This document shows positions 1 through 9,099 of a stretch of DNA of 38,742 nucleotides, piece by piece. Both the position numbers and the translations under genes were made by a program. The stretch covers positions 1 through 38,742 of the forward strand of contig CAZSWP010000035.1 of NCBI GenBank assembly GCA_964610875.1, in the 5' to 3' direction. Origin of the DNA: an uncultured archaeon (GTDB lineage Archaea > Asgardarchaeota > Thorarchaeia > Thorarchaeales > Thorarchaeaceae). Numbering within the stretch: position 1 is the stretch's first letter; each line of letters starts with the position of its first letter. The notes under the pieces were generated by a model. That model made no database searches and was not told the DNA's origin. It worked only from the letters and a program-made list of their open reading frames with translations.

Positions 1-63
1 ACCGTTGCTGGGCGGACTGCCTAGACTCCATGTCCAGGTTTGTCCAGAAAACAATCAACGGTT
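1..63 (+). repeat. Hairpin-forming repeat element, left copy (probable end of a multicopy mobile element/MITE)
   Basis: Positions 9-63 are the reverse complement of 38688-38742 except for 3 nt. Self-complementary: 1-7/56-62, 8-17/38-47 (3 G-T pairs), 21-26/32-37. It interrupts the aminotransferase gene. Confidence 0.85.
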
Positions 64-621
64 ATTGATCACAATGAGTTTCTGTATCCCATTATATGAT
101 AAGCAATTCCGTAATGCTTGTTCAAGATTATCATTAGTGAGTCTATAACCTTCACTAGATTCCGTCTTAATATAATGCACTCGTTTCCCCAAGATATGAG
201 CATGTTCATCATAGCTCACCCAACAAGGCGTTGGTAGGAAGAGTGGGCCTTTCAGAGACATCATTGTGTTGAAAAGAAGTGCCTTTGAACCGGGACCGAT
301 GAGGACTTGATCAGGCGTGTATCTCAATCCATAGATGCGTTCATAGAATAATGATACCTGTTCCCTGAGTGCAAGAACACCTTGGGTGGGCAAGTAACTG
401 CGTTGGTCAGCATTCTCACAAAGGGCATTCTTGATGAGTGGGTGTATTGGGAATGGGGACTCGCCAAATCCTAAGTGATATACCTGTTCGCCTGCTTTCC
501 GTTTTTGCAAAATCATCTCATTCATTGCCAAAGTTGCCGATGGTTTCATCCTCTCACTGACTGACGATGTACGCAAGAAATCACCTGACCTGTAATTAGA
601 ACTATTTTTTCGATTACTCAT
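55..621 (-). pseudogene. Class I/II PLP-dependent (aspartate-type) aminotransferase, 5' half only, truncated by the terminal repeat
   Basis: Motifs PSATLAMNE, HLGFGESPF, Y.PTQG..ALRE, IGPGSKALL, PTPCWVSY. Ends at LIVINN-R-stop where N(P)NNPTG is expected; the stop lies inside the repeat. Confidence 0.85.
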
Positions 622-749
622 GTTGATAAAAACTGGATGGAGTATGCCAACTCTAGTTATCAGAGATTCTACGACATATTGCGAAACAAAAACTAGAATT
701 CTTATTGCTGTTATATTATTGATTGTCCATCAATTATGGTGATGTTTCC

Positions 750-1571
750 ATGGACAAACTCATAATTACTATCGCCCCAACTGGATCTGTTCCTAGAAGG
801 AGTCATTCCCCCTATCTGCCAGTGACATCTGATGAGATTGCTGATGCTGCCTATCTCTGTGAGCAAGAGGGAGCATCAATAATTCATGTTCATTGTCGTG
901 ATAAGAATGAGAACCCAACTTCAAATTATGAGGTGTTCAAAGAAACTGTAGATAAGATACGAAAACGAACGGATCTTATCATTATGGTTTCTACTAGTGG
1001 TGTTGCAGGAACGACTGATGAAGACCGTGCAGAGCCATTAAGAGTCAAGCCCGAGCTAGCTAGCCTCACCACAGGCTCACTCAATTTTGCAGGCAGAAAT
1101 CCATCACTTGTTTATTCTAATTCATGGGAGACCGTGACATATCTTGCAAAGAGAATGTTAGAGCTAGATATCAAACCAGAACTAGAGGCATTTGATGTCG
1201 GTTTCATTGCACAAGGAGAGAAATTACTTAATCAAGGCCTGGTGAAAAAGCCCTGTCTGTTTCAACTTGTCATGGGTGTGGATGGAGGTATACCGGGTAC
1301 ACAGGAGAACCTTCTGCATATGGTACGACAGATTCCATCCGAAACCATATTCACTGTTGCGGGTGTTGGAAGGTCACAATTGCCTATGACTACCATGTCA
1401 ATATTACTTGGTGGACATGTCAGGGTAGGACTTGAGGATAACCTCTACTATCGAAAAGGGGAACTCACTTCCAATGAGAGATTCGTTGCAAGATGCCGAA
1501 GAACAGCGGAGGAGCTTGGCAGAGAGTTGGCAAGCCCAGATGATGTGAGAGAAATTTTGAATCTCAAATAA
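750..1571 (+). CDS. kce: 3-keto-5-aminohexanoate cleavage enzyme family (BKACE/DUF849)
   Basis: KLIITIAPTG, GASIIHVHCRD, KPELEAFD, GGHVRVGLEDN. ATG at 750 is preceded by GGTGA (ORF track start 723). Confidence 0.9.
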   Translation: MDKLIITIAPTGSVPRRSHSPYLPVTSDEIADAAYLCEQEGASIIHVHCRDKNENPTSNYEVFKETVDKIRKRTDLIIMVSTSGVAGTTDEDRAEPLRVKPELASLTTGSLNFAGRNPSLVYSNSWETVTYLAKRMLELDIKPELEAFDVGFIAQGEKLLNQGLVKKPCLFQLVMGVDGGIPGTQENLLHMVRQIPSETIFTVAGVGRSQLPMTTMSILLGGHVRVGLEDNLYYRKGELTSNERFVARCRRTAEELGRELASPDDVREILNLK

Positions 1572-1643
1572 AGATAAGATTGGTTTGAAATGTGAGGGGG
1601 AAGTCATCCATCTAACTAGGTCGAGGCGGTGTTGTGATGGATT

Positions 1644-2348
1644 CTAAGCTTTCAATACTTTCAATTGGTAATCTATCAATTCTTTGATGCCTTTGTGTGC
1701 AAGGTCAAGCAGGTCATTCAAAGTATCTCTTGAAAATGTACCCTGTTCCCCAGTGCCCTGCACCTCGACATATTCATCGTCAAGCATTACTACATTCATA
1801 TCAACTTCAGCTTGGGAATCTTCGACATAACAAAGGTCTAACATATTTTCTCCTTCAACAACACCTACACTGACTGCAGCTACATTTCCGATGAGTGGTA
1901 AGTCTGGAATCATGTCCATATCAACCATATATGACAAGGCATCACAGAGGGCGACATATGCACCGGTGATTGCTGCTGTACGTGTGCCACCATCAGCTTG
2001 AATCACATCACAATCAATGCGAACTTGATGTTCTGATATTCTATTCAGATCAACAGCAGCCCTGAGAGACCGGCCGATCAAGCGTTGAATCTCCTGAGTC
2101 CGTCCGCTGACACGATAACGGTTCGTTCTATCTGTTGTCGCCCGAGGTAACATACCGTATTCTGCTGTGACCCATCCTTGTCCAGCTCCATTTAGCCAAC
2201 CAGGGACTTTTTCTTCTACAGTTGCAGTACAGATGATTTTCGTATCACCAGTAGATATGAGAACAGAACCTTCTGGATGTTTCAGATAATCTCTTATGAT
2301 TTCGATTGGTCGCAGAGCGTCATTTGGTCTATTATCTTGACGGGTCAT
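1644..2348 (-). CDS. rph: Ribonuclease PH (bacterial type)
   Basis: [70 protein letters not shown]. Confidence 0.93.
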
Positions 2349-2520
2349 GTTAGGGCCACAATGGTTTTGCTAGGAAACCCACTATTAATGATGTCGGGTA
2401 ATCCAAAAATAGGAAAAACCAGAAGTATTATTGTCACCTATGCTATAATGAACAACGTACATTCATATTGTACTGTGAGGATTATGCATCATTAAGCAGA
2501 GAGGAAGTGTAGTCTGAAGT

Positions 2521-3552
2521 ATGATGGACCTTCACCGAAGATTTGATGCCGCACTCCATGATACGGTGGAGGAGTGGAAAAAAAGAGAGGAAGTCAAAGG
2601 GATCTTCACTTATGGTTCTGTAGTCAGGGGTACTGCTACAACTAGCTCTGATCTTGACATCTGTATGGTCTGGGATGGTTCTGAAGCGCCAGCCAGACTA
2701 ATGGCAGAACACAAAGGTGTCGTTGTGGACATGGACTTTGTCACTCCTTCTGATATTAACACTGTTCTTGATGGTGAAGCAGAAACAGCATTTCAAATTG
2801 CGGGTGTGATCAGTAGACTTAGAGAAGCGCGTGTGCAGTACGATACAGATGGCATGTTACGTGATTGGCTTAAGAGAGCTTCAAAATATACATGGCCAAG
2901 CAATATGGTGGAGAATACAAAACGGGATGCTAAAGAAGCATTACAGTTTGCAGAGAGATATCTGGAGAGCAATGATCCTGCAAGCGCAACCCATGAGTTG
3001 AGGAAGGGGTTGTTTGAGCTCGGTCGAGTTGTGGTGATGAAGAACCAGATATTCTCTATTATTAAACCTTCAGAAGTCCTTTCCGAAGTGAGAATGTTGG
3101 ATCCTATGATGTATCAGCTTTTCCTTCGAACATTCAAATTAAAAGGATTTGAAGAGGAGAACCTGTTAGAGATTCTTTCCGATGTTAATGACTGGTTGAA
3201 GATTGCAGTGGATAGATTTGAACAGGCAGAAAATATCTCACTCGATGAGTCAGTTGTTACACATCTCACTCAAGCTCAACGTTATTATTATGGATCAAAA
3301 GCACTGACATTGAATGGAGAATATGAACTGGCCGTACTTGAGATGCGACGATCGATTTCCATGATAGGCCGGGCTTTTCTTGCTCTTGGAGGTAATCCGC
3401 TGCAAAAAGATGAATCACTGATATCTAGAGTTAGAGAAGAAGAACCGGTGTTCTATGAGAAGATAATGTTGGAATATGGGGATTATGACTTACAACCAGC
3501 CGGTGTAAAACGAGGCATAAGTGAAGCATCATTTCTTGCAAAGCGCTTATAG
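2521..3552 (+). CDS. Pol-beta-superfamily minimal nucleotidyltransferase fused to two HEPN-like helical bundles
   Basis: GIFTYGSVVRG..TTSSDLDI plus a third acidic strand (VDMDF). Two segments match HEPN N-terminal helices (AKEALQFAERYLESNDPASATHELRK; LTQAQRYYYGSKALTLNGEYELAVLEMRRS). Confidence 0.7.
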   Translation: MMDLHRRFDAALHDTVEEWKKREEVKGIFTYGSVVRGTATTSSDLDICMVWDGSEAPARLMAEHKGVVVDMDFVTPSDINTVLDGEAETAFQIAGVISRLREARVQYDTDGMLRDWLKRASKYTWPSNMVENTKRDAKEALQFAERYLESNDPASATHELRKGLFELGRVVVMKNQIFSIIKPSEVLSEVRMLDPMMYQLFLRTFKLKGFEEENLLEILSDVNDWLKIAVDRFEQAENISLDESVVTHLTQAQRYYYGSKALTLNGEYELAVLEMRRSISMIGRAFLALGGNPLQKDESLISRVREEEPVFYEKIMLEYGDYDLQPAGVKRGISEASFLAKRL

Positions 3553-3594
3553 ATAGAGCTAGATTGATTAGATGGCCAGCAAAAATCTTCTTAG

Positions 3595-4326
3595 GTGCAA
3601 AGAATGTCTGGTCCCCCTGTGGAAATAATCAATCTTGAAACAGTTCCTTTGACGAGGGAGAAGCAAAATATTCTGCTAGAAGAATTTGAGATCTATTTTA
3701 AAGCAACCAATACAACAATTAGGACGGTTCTCAAAAACCATCTCACCTCAGCGAGTAAAACTATTGAATTACTCAAATATCCTCTTGCAGAAAAACTCAT
3801 TTTCAGTGATATTGCGAGTGGGAGTGAAGAAACAAAACGAAGTCAGCAGATACTTCAATTCGCTAAACGTTTTGATTATGGCATTGTAACAAAGGTTGTT
3901 CAGCAAAATGCAAGCTCACCTGAACCTATCTATCATGAGTTTACAAACGCGTATCTTGAACAGTTTACAGCAGATGTTGTCAAGACTGCCAGAGTAGAGA
4001 TAGGTCGACACAGAAAGATGGCGAAGATAGTAAGGAGTATGAGAGATAAGACTCCGCATTTTAAGCGTGGCCGATTGATTCTATCTGGAATTTTAGTCTG
4101 GGTTGATGAAAAAACAGTGAGACTGATGACCACAAGCGGTGAACTTCTTCCACTTCCTTTTGACAAGCGAACCAGAAATAGAGAGAAAGACATACTCGTC
4201 AAACTAGAGGAAGAAGAAAAAAATGATAAGACAGGGAATAAAAGACTCTATGACCGAGTAAGAATAACATGGAATGATGAAGGTTACGCAAATGTGGATA
4301 TCCGTGTAGATAAATTCAGTTTATGA
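3595..4326 (+). CDS. TnpB/Cas12f-like N-terminal lobe (WED+REC) protein lacking RuvC
   Basis: Ordered TnpB-like elements: LTREKQNILLEEFEIYFKATN, helical REC, KTPHFKR, VRLMTTSGELLPLPF, terminal hairpin RVRITWNDEGYANVDIRV. No GVDLG RuvC-I motif and no zinc finger. Confidence 0.6.
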   Translation: MQRMSGPPVEIINLETVPLTREKQNILLEEFEIYFKATNTTIRTVLKNHLTSASKTIELLKYPLAEKLIFSDIASGSEETKRSQQILQFAKRFDYGIVTKVVQQNASSPEPIYHEFTNAYLEQFTADVVKTARVEIGRHRKMAKIVRSMRDKTPHFKRGRLILSGILVWVDEKTVRLMTTSGELLPLPFDKRTRNREKDILVKLEEEEKNDKTGNKRLYDRVRITWNDEGYANVDIRVDKFSL

Positions 4327-4327
4327 C

Positions 4328-5218
4328 CTAAGTATCAAAGGTCCATGAACGGACTGCACCTGAGAAGTCAGCAGTATAAAATTGACCACCTTGAGGGTTC
4401 CAAACCAAATCGGATATTCCGGTTTCAACATATCCGGTGTCAATAATGCCTTTCGTTGCCAAATCCCATACCTTCACTTTACGGTCCCAACTACCAGTTG
4501 CCAGAAACTGACCGTTAGGACTGACAGCTAAAGTACTCACTATGTCTGAATGGGCTTTTATTTCAGACCTATTTCTAGTATTTTCAATCGATACTATTCT
4601 TACAGATCCGTTATGGAGCCCAGCTAGAATATTCCCATCATCATGCATGATGTCAAACGAACGGATTCTATGTTTTTGTCGTAAAATGTTCTTTACAAGT
4701 TCAAATGAAGACATATCCCAAAGCTTGACACTACCATCCCAAGAGGCAGTGAGCATATACGCCCCATCAGAAGTGAATGAAATTCCTGAAATATCACGTT
4801 GATGAGCCTCCAGATTTCTAATACATTTCAATCGGTTCAGTGAAAAAATCTTAACAATTCCATCTCTTGTTCCGGCAGCCCCTTTGGAAGACTCTTCGTG
4901 CACATTCAGAGATTTTATCTCAGATGAGTGAGATAACACTGACTCGTTCTGTACTCCCTTTGCACTTTTCCAGGATCGTGCAGTACAGTCCCAGCTGCCT
5001 GTCAATAGCCTAGCCCCTTTGTCTAGGAATGCAAGGGAAGATATCATGCCTTCATGACCAGAGAGCGCTCTGCGTGGTCTGCCATTTTTTGCACTCAAAA
5101 GTAAAACCTGTGCATTAATGTTACCACATGCCAACCTTTTGTTGAGGATGTCTACAGCAATTTTTGTAATTGGTGGAGGGGGATTACCAGGAGGTCGGTA
5201 GAGAATTGTATCTTCCAC
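4328..5218 (-). CDS. WD40-repeat beta-propeller protein
   Basis: Repeated GH/AH...TGSWD...WD units (LSGHEG..LLTGSWD; LEAHQR..TASWDGSVKLWD; KAHSD..LATGSWDRKVKVWD). Confidence 0.93.
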   Translation of the reverse strand: MEDTILYRPPGNPPPPITKIAVDILNKRLACGNINAQVLLLSAKNGRPRRALSGHEGMISSLAFLDKGARLLTGSWDCTARSWKSAKGVQNESVLSHSSEIKSLNVHEESSKGAAGTRDGIVKIFSLNRLKCIRNLEAHQRDISGISFTSDGAYMLTASWDGSVKLWDMSSFELVKNILRQKHRIRSFDIMHDDGNILAGLHNGSVRIVSIENTRNRSEIKAHSDIVSTLAVSPNGQFLATGSWDRKVKVWDLATKGIIDTGYVETGISDLVWNPQGGQFYTADFSGAVRSWTFDT

Positions 5219-5279
5219 TTATATCACCTAGACAAAGACTTCAAAGATATATCTGGGAGTTTTGGAATAAAAGTGTGTA

Positions 5280-6290
5280 TCACATGCGGTATCGTCTTCG
5301 AGCCAAAAAGATAATGACAATGGCCATGACACCTATAATGATTGATACATAGAGCAGGACGGGACTTTCTTGCTCAAATGGTGTTGTTTGCGTTAGCTGT
5401 TGGATAAGAAATGTTTCAATCACTGAGCCAACCACCTCCAAGCTACTACCACTACACTTGTCAGGGGTATCCTCTCGAGTGTGCCAATACCATGGGAAGG
5501 GGGTTTGAATGATATCAAGTGCAGGAATACCTGCATCAAGAAACGGTCGATGGTCATCAATAATTGTTGAACCAGTCTGATTCAGAAATACATCTGAATG
5601 ACCGAGCTCTGCAGCAATGTGCCAGACTTCATTTTGGAGTGTATCTGTTGATGAGATTTCTTTAGGAAGTTGTAAACTGGCATCGCCAACCATATCAAGA
5701 AGAAGCATCGCTCTTACACTATTTTTGCGTAACGTGTCAAGCTGGTCGACATAATATGTTGAGCCAACAATCCAGTCCCAACCATTTATGCGACCTGAAT
5801 CTTCAGCATCGAAAAATACCAACTCTACGATATGGCGGTCCTGTTGGGGCAGTATTCTCGCCAGCTCAAGAAGAATTGCAACTCCACTAGCGCCATCATT
5901 TGCTCCAAGAACTGGATAGGTCCGGTTTGAAGGAGAGGGATCGTTATCGGCAAGAGGCCGGGTATCATAATGAGCGCCGAGAACAAGTGGGGCAGTATTT
6001 GGATTTTCAATATATGCAATTATGTTTGAACAATTTGTCCCGAGATACGTAAAATTCTGAAATCTGACCTCCCATCCAAAGCTAACAAGCATGTCAGCAA
6101 TATACCTTCGGCATTGAGTCAGATTGTCCGAACCCGGAGGTCTTGGACCAAAAGCACATTGTGCCTCAAGATGTACAAATGCGCTATCACCATCGAATAA
6201 CGGAGTGTGCTGTGCTGTAGCAGTTGGTACAAAAACAAAGAACATAGATAGAAAAAGTAATGCTACAACAACAGATCTCAAGAGAATCAC
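5280..6290 (-). CDS. Membrane-anchored M28 family peptidase / glutaminyl cyclase-like protein
   Basis: Signal peptide; FGPRPPGS, LGAHYDTRP, GANDGASGVA, FFDAEDSG, LLDMVGD, DDHRPF, WHT.EDT; C-terminal TM plus RRR tail. Start is probably GTG 6290 or TTG 6281. Confidence 0.88.
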   Translation of the reverse strand: MILLRSVVVALLFLSMFFVFVPTATAQHTPLFDGDSAFVHLEAQCAFGPRPPGSDNLTQCRRYIADMLVSFGWEVRFQNFTYLGTNCSNIIAYIENPNTAPLVLGAHYDTRPLADNDPSPSNRTYPVLGANDGASGVAILLELARILPQQDRHIVELVFFDAEDSGRINGWDWIVGSTYYVDQLDTLRKNSVRAMLLLDMVGDASLQLPKEISSTDTLQNEVWHIAAELGHSDVFLNQTGSTIIDDHRPFLDAGIPALDIIQTPFPWYWHTREDTPDKCSGSSLEVVGSVIETFLIQQLTQTTPFEQESPVLLYVSIIIGVMAIVIIFLARRRYRM

Positions 6291-6325
6291 TACAAACGAG
6301 AGGTCATTTCTGCCTATCAACATTT

Positions 6326-6791
6326 TCAATGTGAATGATTTATTCTGTTGTTGACTAATGTTCGTATTATTTTTTGGTAATTCGCGAGGAAACCTACGAA
6401 TAATTGTAGAAGGGATATCAGAATATCCAATCTCACCCCTAGCAAGCATTGCCATGATATCAGATGCCATTTTGTGCCCTTGAACTCGCGGTAGGAACTC
6501 ATCAAATATATTCCTGAAAACAGTAACTCCAATTAATTTGTCTGATTTGAACTCTGCAGAGTCATTATTCGGCCAAAGAAACCGAAGACCGTAGATCTTC
6601 TGTTCAACAATATTCCTAGGAATTTCACCAGAAATAATCTGGAGTCCTCTGTACATCACTGCTCCGCCACATGGCTTGTCCCGAGGGAGTGTGCACTTCT
6701 CTAGCAGAACTGTCTTTAGTCCTCTTTTAGTACATTCGTAGGCTGCAATAGACCCAGCTGGTCCAGCTCCCACAACCACTACATCATACAA
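6326..6791 (-). pseudogene. Geranylgeranyl reductase family FAD oxidoreductase with a large internal deletion and a 3' frameshift
   Basis: The N-terminal ~100 aa (DVVVVGAGPAG, PRDKPCGG, R..FDEFL) are joined directly to a C-terminal-like segment. Removing one base from the T6 run at 6370-6375 gives a natural end (PKIIRTLVNNRINHSH-stop). Confidence 0.75.
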
Positions 6792-6884
6792 TTCGGTTGA
6801 TTTCCTCCAGAATCACACCGCAGAGTCATAATCACCCTTCCCCTATTGCTATATGCTTGGATTTGTTTTTGTGTTTAACGCCCT

Positions 6885-7544
6885 CTATATGTCTCGACAT
6901 GTTTCACAGCCAACACGAGGTCTAAGACCGAGACGACGCATAATTTTTCCTCCAGGTAGTTCATCTTCATGGGGTGTTTTATTTGGTTCCATGGGAATCT
7001 CTCGTCTTCCCACTTCTTCAAATCCGTATGCTTGGATCAGCATTTTAGAAGGGGTGTTCTCTTCATATACTTCGCAATATACTTCATCAACACCTGCATC
7101 AATGAAGAATTCAGCAGCCTTTCTAATCAGTGCAGTAGCAACACCTCTTCGACGCCTACTTGGGAGAACACCAATTCCCGTAATCTCGCCATAGAATGAG
7201 TCTTCGTCCTTTTCAACAAAACATGCAATGAACCCTGCAAGAGTGTCCCACATCTCTGCAACGTATACGCTCTCAGTATCAAGCTTTAATGCCTCTTCAG
7301 TTGTCAATGGACAGAAGGGATCGGGCGATGCTAAGAAGCATTTATTGTAGACCTCTACAAATTCGTCAATCTCATCTTTGTGAAGATTTCTTACATGAAC
7401 ATAACGTGGGATTTCTTTATTCTCCCACCATTCAGCAGCCAGTTCCAATGCTTCTTCGGCATCAGCCTTCATAATCAAATAGGATCGAGGTTCTTGTCCC
7501 ATACCACTAGAAGCATTACCAGACGACACCAAAACCATCTCCAA
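6885..7544 (-). CDS. GNAT family N-acetyltransferase
   Basis: GIGVLPSRRRRGVATALI acetyl-CoA motif; EVYEENTPS..YGF; C-terminal CxxC. The true start may be ATG 7472. Confidence 0.88.
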   Translation of the reverse strand: MEMVLVSSGNASSGMGQEPRSYLIMKADAEEALELAAEWWENKEIPRYVHVRNLHKDEIDEFVEVYNKCFLASPDPFCPLTTEEALKLDTESVYVAEMWDTLAGFIACFVEKDEDSFYGEITGIGVLPSRRRRGVATALIRKAAEFFIDAGVDEVYCEVYEENTPSKMLIQAYGFEEVGRREIPMEPNKTPHEDELPGGKIMRRLGLRPRVGCETCRDI

Positions 7545-7559
7545 TATGAGAAGTTCATG

Positions 7560-8333
7560 CTATGCATAAAGTCGATCTATGGCTTTCACTGTAGCTTCAA
7601 TTTCCTTATCAACAGCTTCAATCATAAGTGGATCTTGTTCGCCACTCTTCTCCTCAGGAGTTTCTTGTTCAGATTTCTGCCCCGTGTGAAGATTGCCATC
7701 ACATGCGAGAATTGAAGCAGCTCTCAGTCCATGAGTACTAGCAAACACGAATAATAGAGATGTTTCCATTTCCACACACTTCACATTCGCTTTTGTCCAG
7801 ATGTCCAACATGTTACACTGCTCTGAAACATAATAGATATCGCTTGTCCAACAGATTCCACTATGTATCCGTTCTCTTGGTAGTAGTTTGTTGATTTCTT
7901 CATATAATGCTAGATACAACTCAGGGTCCGCGACTGCGGGATATTCCATTGGAGCATAGTTCAGACCAGTCCTCTCGTCGCGCACTGCTCCAGTTACAAC
8001 AACAACATCACCTGTTTTCACATCAAGTCCAACCCCTCCGCAACTTCCTACACGAATGAAGGTTTCAGCATCAAGGTTAGCTAACTCTTCAATACAGATA
8101 TGCGTGCTTCCCGTACCCATTCCAGTCCCTGAGATAGTAACTGGCACACCTTTGGGAGTGTATGCACGATATGTCACAAGTCCTCTATAACGTGCTACTT
8201 CTTCTGAGTCATTCATTTTGGACGCGATAACGGGTATTCGATCAGGATTACCAGCGATTAAAACAACCTTTTCGACATCACCCTCTCCAACTCTAAGATG
8301 AGGTTGCACTCTGCGCTTCATAATCAACACCAA
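7560..8333 (-). CDS. udp: Nucleoside (uridine) phosphorylase, PNP/UDP family
   Basis: AGNPDR, TGMGTGS, IRVGSCGG, GAVRDE, VEMETS. Confidence 0.85.
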   Translation of the reverse strand: MVLIMKRRVQPHLRVGEGDVEKVVLIAGNPDRIPVIASKMNDSEEVARYRGLVTYRAYTPKGVPVTISGTGMGTGSTHICIEELANLDAETFIRVGSCGGVGLDVKTGDVVVVTGAVRDERTGLNYAPMEYPAVADPELYLALYEEINKLLPRERIHSGICWTSDIYYVSEQCNMLDIWTKANVKCVEMETSLLFVFASTHGLRAASILACDGNLHTGQKSEQETPEEKSGEQDPLMIEAVDKEIEATVKAIDRLYA

Positions 8334-8377
8334 TATTTGTTAGACCGAAGTCCCTTTTCACTCTTGGCCTTTTCTTC

Positions 8378-8602
8378 CTAGCAATCTACGGAGTTGATTC
8401 GTTTAATCACACACCCAACACATATCCACTTCTCTGAGATGCGAAAGACCTTCCCATATTCAGGTGTAAGAGCATGACACTCCTCGCATTTGCCGAATTG
8501 GTGTTGATAGTTCTCAGAGAGAAACACAATCAATAGCGATGCAAGTTTGATAGATTCTCTCACAATATGCATTAGTTGTTCACTACTCATGTGTGATATC
8601 AT
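8378..8602 (-). CDS. Small putative zinc-finger protein (or gene remnant)
   Basis: CEEC...CVGC pair in a 74-aa ORF that fills an intergenic gap. Confidence 0.45.
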   Translation of the reverse strand: MISHMSSEQLMHIVRESIKLASLLIVFLSENYQHQFGKCEECHALTPEYGKVFRISEKWICVGCVIKRINSVDC

Positions 8603-8724
8603 TACTGTGATATATTAGCACCACAAGATGTGTTGATTTCTCGAATCAATAGCTTTTTGTCAGGGATGGCAGAGGGAGAAGATATCTGTCAGAAAGGCAT
8701 CTGATGAGAATTTGGTGTTGACTC

Positions 8725-9099
8725 ATGGTTCAATTCATGTATTACTGCTACAGATGTGGAGTAAAGAACCAAATCGAGCTTCCTGCTCCAGATGCCCCCG
8801 AGTATTATCATGCTGATGTGAAATGTAGGAAATGCAAAGATGCAACACGTGTCATTCTATCCTCATGTCCGAATCAGGATTGTAATCGTTTTGTGTACTG
8901 GATTAATGATATTTCAATACCCGATTTAGTAACAGGTTTTGCCAAGTATATGGTTCAGAATATGCAAATAATGATCGATAAAGCAGCTCAACAGGGTGCA
9001 CGGATTGGTATTGATACTCCTGACAAATATCCTATAAATGCTACATGCCCTTGCGGAACACAATTTGCAGTTGAAATCAACATACCTGATTTAGATTGA
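8725..9099 (+). CDS. Cys-rich zinc-ribbon hypothetical protein
   Basis: CYRC, CRKC, CPNQDC, CPC motifs; GGTG upstream of the ATG. Confidence 0.75.
   Translation: MVQFMYYCYRCGVKNQIELPAPDAPEYYHADVKCRKCKDATRVILSSCPNQDCNRFVYWINDISIPDLVTGFAKYMVQNMQIMIDKAAQQGARIGIDTPDKYPINATCPCGTQFAVEINIPDLD

Follow-up and report, generated by a model that had tools for sequence, protein, structure and literature searches.

A TnpB-derived WED–REC protein without a nuclease domain, conserved in one family of Thorarchaeota

Overview

The stretch of DNA analysed here (38,742 nucleotides; contig CAZSWP010000035.1 of assembly GCA_964610875.1, from an uncultured archaeon of the Thorarchaeaceae; referred to below as the window) carries a gene whose product is a TnpB/Cas12f-type recognition lobe, made up of WED and REC domains and lacking RuvC. 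All Cas12 enzymes descend from TnpB, which has been put to new uses on many occasions. The protein described here is derived from TnpB but is not itself a TnpB, since it fails to show the nuclease, zinc-finger and mobility features that define TnpB. Its gene, which we call the TnpB-lobe gene, is domesticated and under selection and is not a recent truncation. Overall, we consider it very probable that the locus holds a selected, nuclease-free TnpB lobe. The fuller explanation that we favour, in which this lobe has been exapted as a guide-independent DNA binder, is given slightly better than even odds.

The protein has the fold of the TnpB/Cas12f recognition lobe

The open reading frame (ORF) at 3595–4326 on the forward strand is intact, and its stop codon is parted from the convergent stop codon of a WD40 gene by a single base (4327). 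The first-pass annotation of the window was correct in its coordinates and in describing an intact frame, a WD40 stop 1 bp away and no adjacent tnpA or insertion sequence (IS) ends. It had also recognised the pattern of a TnpB/Cas12f recognition lobe that ends before RuvC, a reading borne out by the topology of the predicted structure, by the Foldseek and VIA matches and by hhalign.

An AlphaFold (AF2) model of the protein, built with a 37-sequence alignment, has a predicted local distance difference test score (pLDDT) of 92.2 and a predicted TM-score (pTM) of 0.89. The chain forms one strand, then a helical block (residues 18–147) and then six strands with one flanking helix. In ISDra2 TnpB, the WED domain is a seven-stranded OB barrel with a flanking helix, a four-helix REC domain is placed between strands 1 and 2, and RuvC starts at residue 185 (Nakagawa et al., PMC10097598). 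Comparison of the model with this topology reveals the same arrangement of a WED OB barrel with a helical REC between strands 1 and 2.

Foldseek searches of the PDB returned almost only Cas12f, Cas12n, TnpB, Cas12k, Cas12m, CasLambda and Fanzor, with a best E-value of 2e-5, so that the AlphaFold and Foldseek comparison advised by the first-pass annotation leads to the WED and REC lobes of Cas12f and TnpB. In an exhaustive VIA structural search covering 48,161 chains, ranks 1–29 are all Cas12, TnpB or Fanzor proteins (Z 11.6–6.6), with 156–193 residues aligned and at least 160 in 28 of the 29; the first unrelated fold appears at Z 6.5 over 88 residues. Model residues 1–239 map onto residues 2–214 of Cas12f and 1–178 of ISDra2 TnpB, and the structural match stops at about that last residue, just short of the RuvC start. 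The structural neighbours in the ESM Atlas are TnpB clusters bearing PF01385, PF07282 and PF27234. Bacterial Atlas clusters of about 178–184 amino acids (aa), belonging to no Pfam family, have the same WED–REC fold (TM 0.75–0.79 by target), with 118 members in Cyanobacteriota and 225 and 51 in Bacillota; these might be fragments of TnpB or represent additional exaptations without RuvC.

Searches of Pfam-A, NCBIfam and PDB sequences, with the single protein and with the family profile, gave no meaningful match. The family profile also gave a weak match, at E 2.5e-4, to the N-terminal end of a TnpB that belongs to a different Asgard genome; the gene is frameshifted but genuine, and its RuvC-I motif reads ALDINE. 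Eight full-length archaeal relatives of this ALDINE TnpB were gathered (407–485 aa; PF27234 and PF07282, with PF01385 also in three of the eight), and hhalign of the family profile against them gave a probability of 92% and an E-value of 6.6e-7. The alignment is colinear and lies at the N-terminus, family columns 20–144 corresponding to TnpB columns 9–132. The insertion of REC after WED strand 1 is an unusual topology and the profile match is colinear; both speak for reading the protein as a RuvC-less TnpB/Cas12f-type WED–REC lobe by homology and not by convergence.

The family is strongly basic (median isoelectric point 9.95, net charge +12). Its alignment shows conserved Arg, Lys and His positions in the long REC helix, the RDKTPxFK linker and the WED strands, and the most conserved columns coincide with the basic K.P.FK linker, the WED strands and the terminal hairpin. 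Most members are about 180–185 aa long, and the window member, at 240 aa, is longer. The limits of the domains are listed in Table 1.

Table 1. Coordinates of the TnpB-lobe gene, its domains and the surrounding features in the window
Feature	Position	Strand	Basis and remarks
Bacterial-type RNase PH gene, divergent, part of the conserved neighbourhood	1644..2348	-	TIGR01966, 2.4e-102; synteny
Promoter-like box upstream of the nucleotidyltransferase gene	2421..2436	+	Window AGAAGTATTATTGTCA; family consensus AGATAGCTTTATTGA
Pol-beta-type nucleotidyltransferase gene, 343 aa, helical (HEPN-like) C-terminal domains	2521..3552	+	Pfam NTP_transf_2/Polbeta, weak HEPN; structural matches
Promoter-like element AGATTGATTAGA (family consensus AGATTGATTAGG)	3561..3572	+	23 nt before GTG 3595, 32 nt before ATG 3604
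Coding sequence of the RuvC-less TnpB-like protein	3604..4326	+	240 aa from ATG 3604, 243 aa if started at GTG 3595; 59 homologues, AF2 model, Cas12f/TnpB WED and REC matches
WED strand beta1 (residues 6-13), then conserved LTREKQ opening the REC helix	3619..3642	+	DSSP on the model; conserved columns I8 L11 V14 L16 R18 K20 Q21
REC-like helical insertion (residues 18-147)	3655..4044	+	Model; REC-like part and first WED strands aligned by hhalign to the TnpB N-terminus
Lineage-specific helical insert of ~45 aa inside REC (residues ~66-110)	3799..3933	+	Family alignment; missing from the ~185-aa majority form; pLDDT lower there
Basic linker RDKTPHFKRGR, WED beta-barrel strands beta2-beta7 and flanking helix (residues 148-240)	4045..4323	+	Alignment, model, ISDra2 domain limits (PMC10097598); protein end is the expected RuvC-I start
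WD40 beta-propeller gene, convergent	4328..5218	-	ORF and domain search

No nuclease half, guide-RNA candidate or sign of mobility was found at the locus

The Pfam search gave no match to PF01385 or PF07282 for a RuvC domain, and the reading frame closes at the border between WED and RuvC; no zinc finger or TNB domain is seen in the sequence or in the model. In every locus read, the next gene begins 0–65 bp downstream (1 bp to WD40 in the window), too little space for either a RuvC remnant or a guide RNA downstream. When 1.84 billion representative proteins were searched exhaustively with HMMER, only 16 relatives came up, all of at most 240 aa save one of 377 aa, and a word-indexed search revealed no longer or fused relatives among candidates of 439–2000 aa, which counts as weak evidence. 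The 377-aa protein (P0072, L028:5001–6134) is a divergent member at the same syntenic position. Its C-terminal extension of about 190 aa consists of three ~35-aa helical repeats (RPWEVL...VPRIA), gives no Pfam match and is a helical repeat, not RuvC.

Across window positions 1–9000, Rfam (E ≤ 1) identified no guide RNA, the sole match being a chance snoRNA-like one at 8611–8767, and neither terminal inverted repeats nor CRISPR-like arrays were found. Near the TnpB-lobe gene there are no tnpA and no IS ends, the upstream gene being nucleotidyltransferase-like instead, and no conserved non-coding elements besides promoter-like boxes. The gene thus lacks the marks of transposon cargo: it is almost always single-copy, occupies a fixed syntenic position and is accompanied by neither tnpA nor inverted repeats. 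As to a guide, the locus offers no Rfam match, arrays, repeats or downstream space, and one could be encoded elsewhere.

The gene is fixed in one family and under purifying selection

Within one GTDB family (Thorarchaeota), 79 of the 85 genomes give a match to the family profile, nearly always in one copy; among 315 other Asgard genomes there is none apart from that to the N-terminus of the ALDINE TnpB. The source labels of the members read Candidatus Thorarchaeota, with single records labelled Sifarchaeia or Bathyarchaeota. Five of the six family genomes without the gene (G341, G367, G379, G394 and G395) are also without the neighbouring nucleotidyltransferase; these genomes are only 65–88% complete, so an assembly gap is the likely cause. 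In the sixth, G361, the TnpB-lobe gene was not matched and the match to the nucleotidyltransferase is weak and partial. A search of sequencing runs for the gene retrieved three DNA runs from one microbial-mat study and no RNA run among the matches.

The gene order, RNase PH (−), nucleotidyltransferase (+), TnpB-lobe gene (+), in some loci WD40 (−), M28 peptidase (−) and FAD enzyme (−), is kept even in the most divergent members. The ratio of non-synonymous to synonymous substitution rates (dN/dS) for unsaturated pairs is 0.06–0.17 for the TnpB-lobe gene and 0.04–0.14 for its nucleotidyltransferase neighbour, and the frame is open in almost all of the 79 genomes, the few single stops occurring in draft metagenome-assembled genomes. 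The first-pass annotation had put the gene forward as a candidate for domestication and looked to orthologues in Thorarchaeota to decide the matter. They uphold the claim, through presence in most genomes at a nearly always single copy, conserved synteny and purifying selection, with a majority length of about 180–185 aa as against 240 aa here.

In G311, the sole genome of the sister family (96% complete), the nucleotidyltransferase has an orthologue, with an RNase PH gene close by, and the TnpB-lobe gene is absent, from which we infer that the latter was gained at the base of the family beside an older nucleotidyltransferase gene. Another gene near this orthologue (L032, G311:C23, 3863–4249, +) encodes an Asgard profilin (PF00235, E 1.4e-5).

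Proposed function and its alternatives

We propose that a TnpB of the OMEGA/Cas12 type would have been reduced to its recognition lobe, a seven-stranded WED barrel with REC after strand 1. It would have been acquired a single time, in the common ancestor of one Thorarchaeota family, beside a pre-existing nucleotidyltransferase-like gene; from then on it would have been passed down vertically and seldom in more than one copy, kept by purifying selection and probably transcribed from its own promoter. Since the family is basic, with conserved Arg, Lys and His, nucleic-acid binding is the natural reading, and the protein would be a non-catalytic, strongly basic nucleic-acid binder. In ISDra2 TnpB, the duplex of the transposon-adjacent motif (TAM) is held in a cleft to which no domains but WED and REC contribute; RuvC is required, with WED, for the omega-RNA scaffold and, with REC, for the heteroduplex channel (PMC10097598). 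Guide-free DNA binding is favoured because the TAM cleft alone survives intact without RuvC and because no guide-RNA candidate was found. The likeliest mode would then be guide-independent binding of double-stranded DNA in the WED–REC cleft, the TAM-reading site of TnpB, and the protein would act as a DNA-binding regulator or architectural factor and not as an RNA-guided enzyme. By analogy with ISDra2, this mode is the leading, still unproven candidate, and we place it somewhat short of even odds. The analysis establishes the fold, the homology, the loss of the nuclease half and the conservation, selection and synteny of the gene, whereas nucleic-acid binding, a preference for DNA over RNA and independence from a guide are inferred.

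Several points weigh against this explanation. The TM-scores are low, at 0.4–0.6, which is ascribed to hinging of the two domains; the profile–profile link is moderate, at the probability quoted above, with shallow alignments; and hhalign shows no similarity between the family and the window genome's own long TnpBs (about 560–600 aa). That the gene arose as a TnpB fragment, and not from an older free-standing module, is read from the narrow phyletic spread and not from a rooted tree. Binding of DNA or RNA is a prediction, and the WED OB fold could equally bind RNA. Among the sites sampled in the family genomes, no target motif or regulon was found, the extra copies of the promoter word being mostly coincidences in coding sequence. 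Moreover, the ever-adjacent nucleotidyltransferase-like gene might supply the missing lobe or an RNA-related function.

A more specific proposal would make the protein a guide-free TAM reader, that is, a stand-alone sequence-specific DNA-binding domain, perhaps autoregulating through the AGATTGATTAGG box described below; in a variant, it would form a two-protein RNA-guided complex in which the nucleotidyltransferase-like protein replaces the RuvC lobe. We regard this proposal as speculative and more probably wrong than right.

The first-pass annotation had suggested a minimal RNA-guided regulator. Such a protein would be an extreme TldR-like DNA binder, its guide encoded elsewhere, the nucleotidyltransferase-like protein possibly standing in for the lost lobe, and guide-matched targets would be repressed. 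All of the homologues are RNA-guided, the WED domain of TnpB contributes to omega-RNA binding (PMC10097598), and TnpB has repeatedly been exapted in the form of nuclease-dead regulators (PMC10691335). Nevertheless, the intergenic distance of 0–65 bp leaves no space for an RNA downstream, Rfam gave no match, and the sole conserved non-coding words nearby resemble promoters. In TnpB, stem 1, the triple helix and the pseudoknot of the omega-RNA are held by RuvC helices (PMC10097598), which this protein no longer has, and each of the exapted forms found in the literature searched retains the RuvC fold in whole or in part. We therefore consider RNA guidance improbable.

To much the same degree, we think it unlikely that the protein confers RNA-binding specificity, as a subunit, on the nucleotidyltransferase-like protein encoded next to it, with a role in the metabolism of RNA 3′ ends that may be connected with the divergent RNase PH gene. 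In all loci examined the two genes sit side by side in the same orientation, both are missing from the same five family genomes (with the weak, partial nucleotidyltransferase match in G361), RNase PH flanks the pair throughout, and WED is an OB fold. Adjacency is, however, weak evidence where the entire neighbourhood is syntenic, and a functional pair is weakened further by the separate conserved promoter-like box of each gene. The nucleotidyltransferase is also the older of the two, being present without the TnpB-lobe gene in the sister family; a catalytic Asp is lost in 10 of 36 distinct family nucleotidyltransferases; and the two proteins show no more than a moderate correlation in their pairwise divergences (r 0.67). 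Prediction of a complex between them scored 0.00, which is evidence neither way.

The other role put forward in the first-pass annotation was that of a dominant-negative decoy for IS200/IS605 TnpBs. Such a decoy would vie with active TnpBs of the IS200/IS605/IS607 type for either TAM sites or omega-RNA, restraining transposons in this way. The window genome does carry eight full-length TnpB-like ORFs, and a WED–REC lobe could occupy TAM sites. Yet TnpBs are patchy and multi-copy in the family (53 of 86 genomes, 0–21 matches), and the TnpB-lobe gene is kept in two genomes without any PF07282 match, G319 (a single 3.2-Mb contig) and G355. Nor does the family show profile similarity to the resident TnpB clade, and TAM specificities vary among TnpB clades, so that one fixed decoy fits poorly. 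This role is very unlikely. Of the interpretation offered in the first-pass annotation, homology and domestication stand, and RNA guidance and the decoy role find no support.

We give an equally slim chance to an origin outside TnpB, whether as an independent or ancestral free-standing WED–REC module or by convergence of fold. Sequence similarity is detectable at the profile level only, and the bacterial proteins of about 180 aa share the fold with no Pfam family; set against this, the gene is limited to one archaeal family while TnpB is universal, and the position of REC and the colinear profile match speak for descent. Finally, a neutral fragment or pseudogene of a decayed transposon is scarcely credible, for although TnpB fragments are common and a decayed copy is seen in G115, the recent neutral truncation that the first-pass annotation had allowed for is contradicted by open frames in almost all family members, a fixed position, low dN/dS and a conserved promoter-like box.

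Comparison with known systems

The whole protein matches TnpB (IS200/IS605/IS607; ISDra2, PDB 8H1J and 8EXA) and miniature Cas12f with Z 9.8–11.6, and shares with them the WED barrel with REC after strand 1; with TnpB it also shares a basic surface and the colinear profile match to the archaeal N-terminus. Unlike these proteins, the Thorarchaeota form has no RuvC, no zinc finger or TNB domain, no omega-RNA candidate and no mobility, there being no tnpA or IS ends at its fixed locus.

A census of TnpB and Cas12 lists exapted forms with mutated RuvC in the sigma-, SpoIIE-, flagellin- and DppD-associated TnpBs, with an enterobacterial flagellin clade that lacks RuvC-III only (PMC10691335). Like TldR and the inactivated TnpBs (sigma-TnpB, flagellin-TnpB and DppD-TnpB; PMC10691335), the Thorarchaeota protein is immobilised and lineage-fixed beside a host gene and has lost nuclease activity. 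Those proteins keep a mutated RuvC fold, or lose RuvC-III only, and retain a 3′ guide region (PMC10691335), whereas the Thorarchaeota gene has lost both the guide region and all of the nuclease lobe. The protein thus has the immobility, lineage fixation and host-gene linkage of a TldR and has neither the inactivated RuvC fold nor the adjacent guide RNA.

The small GATase-associated TnpBs of Sulfolobaceae (about 280 aa; PMC10691335) are likewise archaeal, non-mobile and shrunken, and lie beside a host gene with no downstream room for an RNA. They represent the opposite reduction, keeping WED and an active RuvC and losing REC (PMC10691335), whereas the Thorarchaeota form keeps WED and REC and loses RuvC. 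The best size-matched structural matches (TM by target 0.50–0.52) are to the second protomer of Cas12f dimers (9nzp_B, 8dzj_B and 7wju_B; about 195–200 residues resolved), in which a WED–REC unit can hold nucleic acid without using its own nuclease. That protomer belongs to a full-length homodimer bound to single guide RNA, whereas the Thorarchaeota lobe is a separate gene product.

Full-text searches of the literature found no description of a conserved TnpB form reduced to WED and REC, and the case goes further in the reuse of TnpB than any other found in the literature searched. A selected, lineage-wide gene of this kind shows that the WED–REC lobe works as a functional unit alone. The majority form of about 180 aa provides a natural minimal scaffold for the question of what WED and REC are capable of in the absence of RNA or RuvC, be it TAM-type DNA reading, RNA holding or dimerisation. 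The gene also adds a lineage-specific, probably regulatory, protein to the Asgard archaea, whose gene regulation bears on eukaryogenesis. Were a short DNA motif indeed read without a guide, the lobe would constitute a new class of DNA-binding domain and a compact engineering part, and a true TAM reader would represent a new type of factor acting in archaeal transcription or on chromatin.

Promoter-like elements

The spacer upstream of the TnpB-lobe gene holds a conserved word, found in loci L001–L053; of 37 distinct spacers, 24 have TTGATTAG without mismatch and 11 more have it with at most two. In most spacers an in-frame GTG follows the AGATTGATTAGG box by 22–27 nt, usually 23–24 nt, with an ATG 9 nt further on. 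Such box-to-start geometry is in keeping with an archaeal promoter, with a TFB recognition element (BRE) and TATA box, that gives a leaderless or near-leaderless mRNA. The gene probably has its own promoter, and the spacing suggests BRE/TATA elements and a leaderless transcript. Of 64 exact 12-mer matches in 86 genomes, 25 fall at this spacer; the reversed control gave 24 matches. The words enriched upstream of the window genome's genes are TTTATA and TTATAT, and since TTGATT is not enriched there, AGATTGATTAGG is not the generic TATA of the genome; it probably serves as a dedicated TATA/BRE of non-canonical sequence. The TAM of ISDra2 TnpB, TTGAT, occurs within this word, which may be coincidence. 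A scan for sigma-70 promoters and terminators was uninformative for archaeal DNA.

A regulon defined by AGATTGATTAGG was considered and is rejected for now, as the word is not enriched in the window genome and its extra copies in family genomes are heterogeneous, mostly coding and without a common downstream gene. A tie to transposon ends was also rejected: the word was not found upstream of ALDINE-type TnpBs in G333 and G331, and the 3′ ends of these share TAGATTGAAACCC, with an 8-nt overlap that is possibly chance. In the same two genomes, active-looking TnpB copies of about 365–440 aa (L070–L075) have this common word, TAGATTGAAACCC and variants, just after the stop codon, where it is probably the end of an omega-RNA scaffold or the right end of the element.

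The divergent spacer between the RNase PH and nucleotidyltransferase genes contains two family-conserved boxes, at 2382–2398 (CTATTAAT..GTCGGG) and at 2421–2436 (AGATAGCTTTATTGA-like), which are probably two divergent promoters. The nucleotidyltransferase and TnpB-lobe genes may accordingly be separate transcription units.

Neighbouring genes and other observations

The nucleotidyltransferase lies directly upstream of the TnpB-lobe gene on the same strand in all loci examined. Its model (pLDDT 89) resembles the kanamycin nucleotidyltransferase ANT(4′), 3c18, Hailong HalB and LinB, with an extra helical domain. The 10 distinct family proteins mentioned above have at least one of the three catalytic Asp residues replaced (D44 to V/T/Y, D46 to N, D70 to N/S), and these lineages are still under purifying selection. 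The conserved role of the protein may be other than catalysis, and in some lineages it may be a pseudo-enzyme or scaffold.

Elsewhere in the window genome, two genes for IS607-type serine recombinases (MerR helix-turn-helix and Resolvase domains; C18:16218–16838 and C18:60669–61283) each have CCTAGACATTGATTAG 21 nt before the ATG. Both converge on an unannotated ORF of 1181 or 1235 aa without a Pfam match, and not on tnpB.

At 5280–6791 (−) of the window, one 503-aa ORF joins an N-terminal FAD/NAD Rossmann motif (residues 3–55) to an M28 peptidase domain (residues 256–460). Related genomes have two genes at this position, encoding a FAD enzyme of about 400–430 aa and an M28 peptidase of about 340 aa, and the 503-aa ORF therefore looks like a deletion-fusion.

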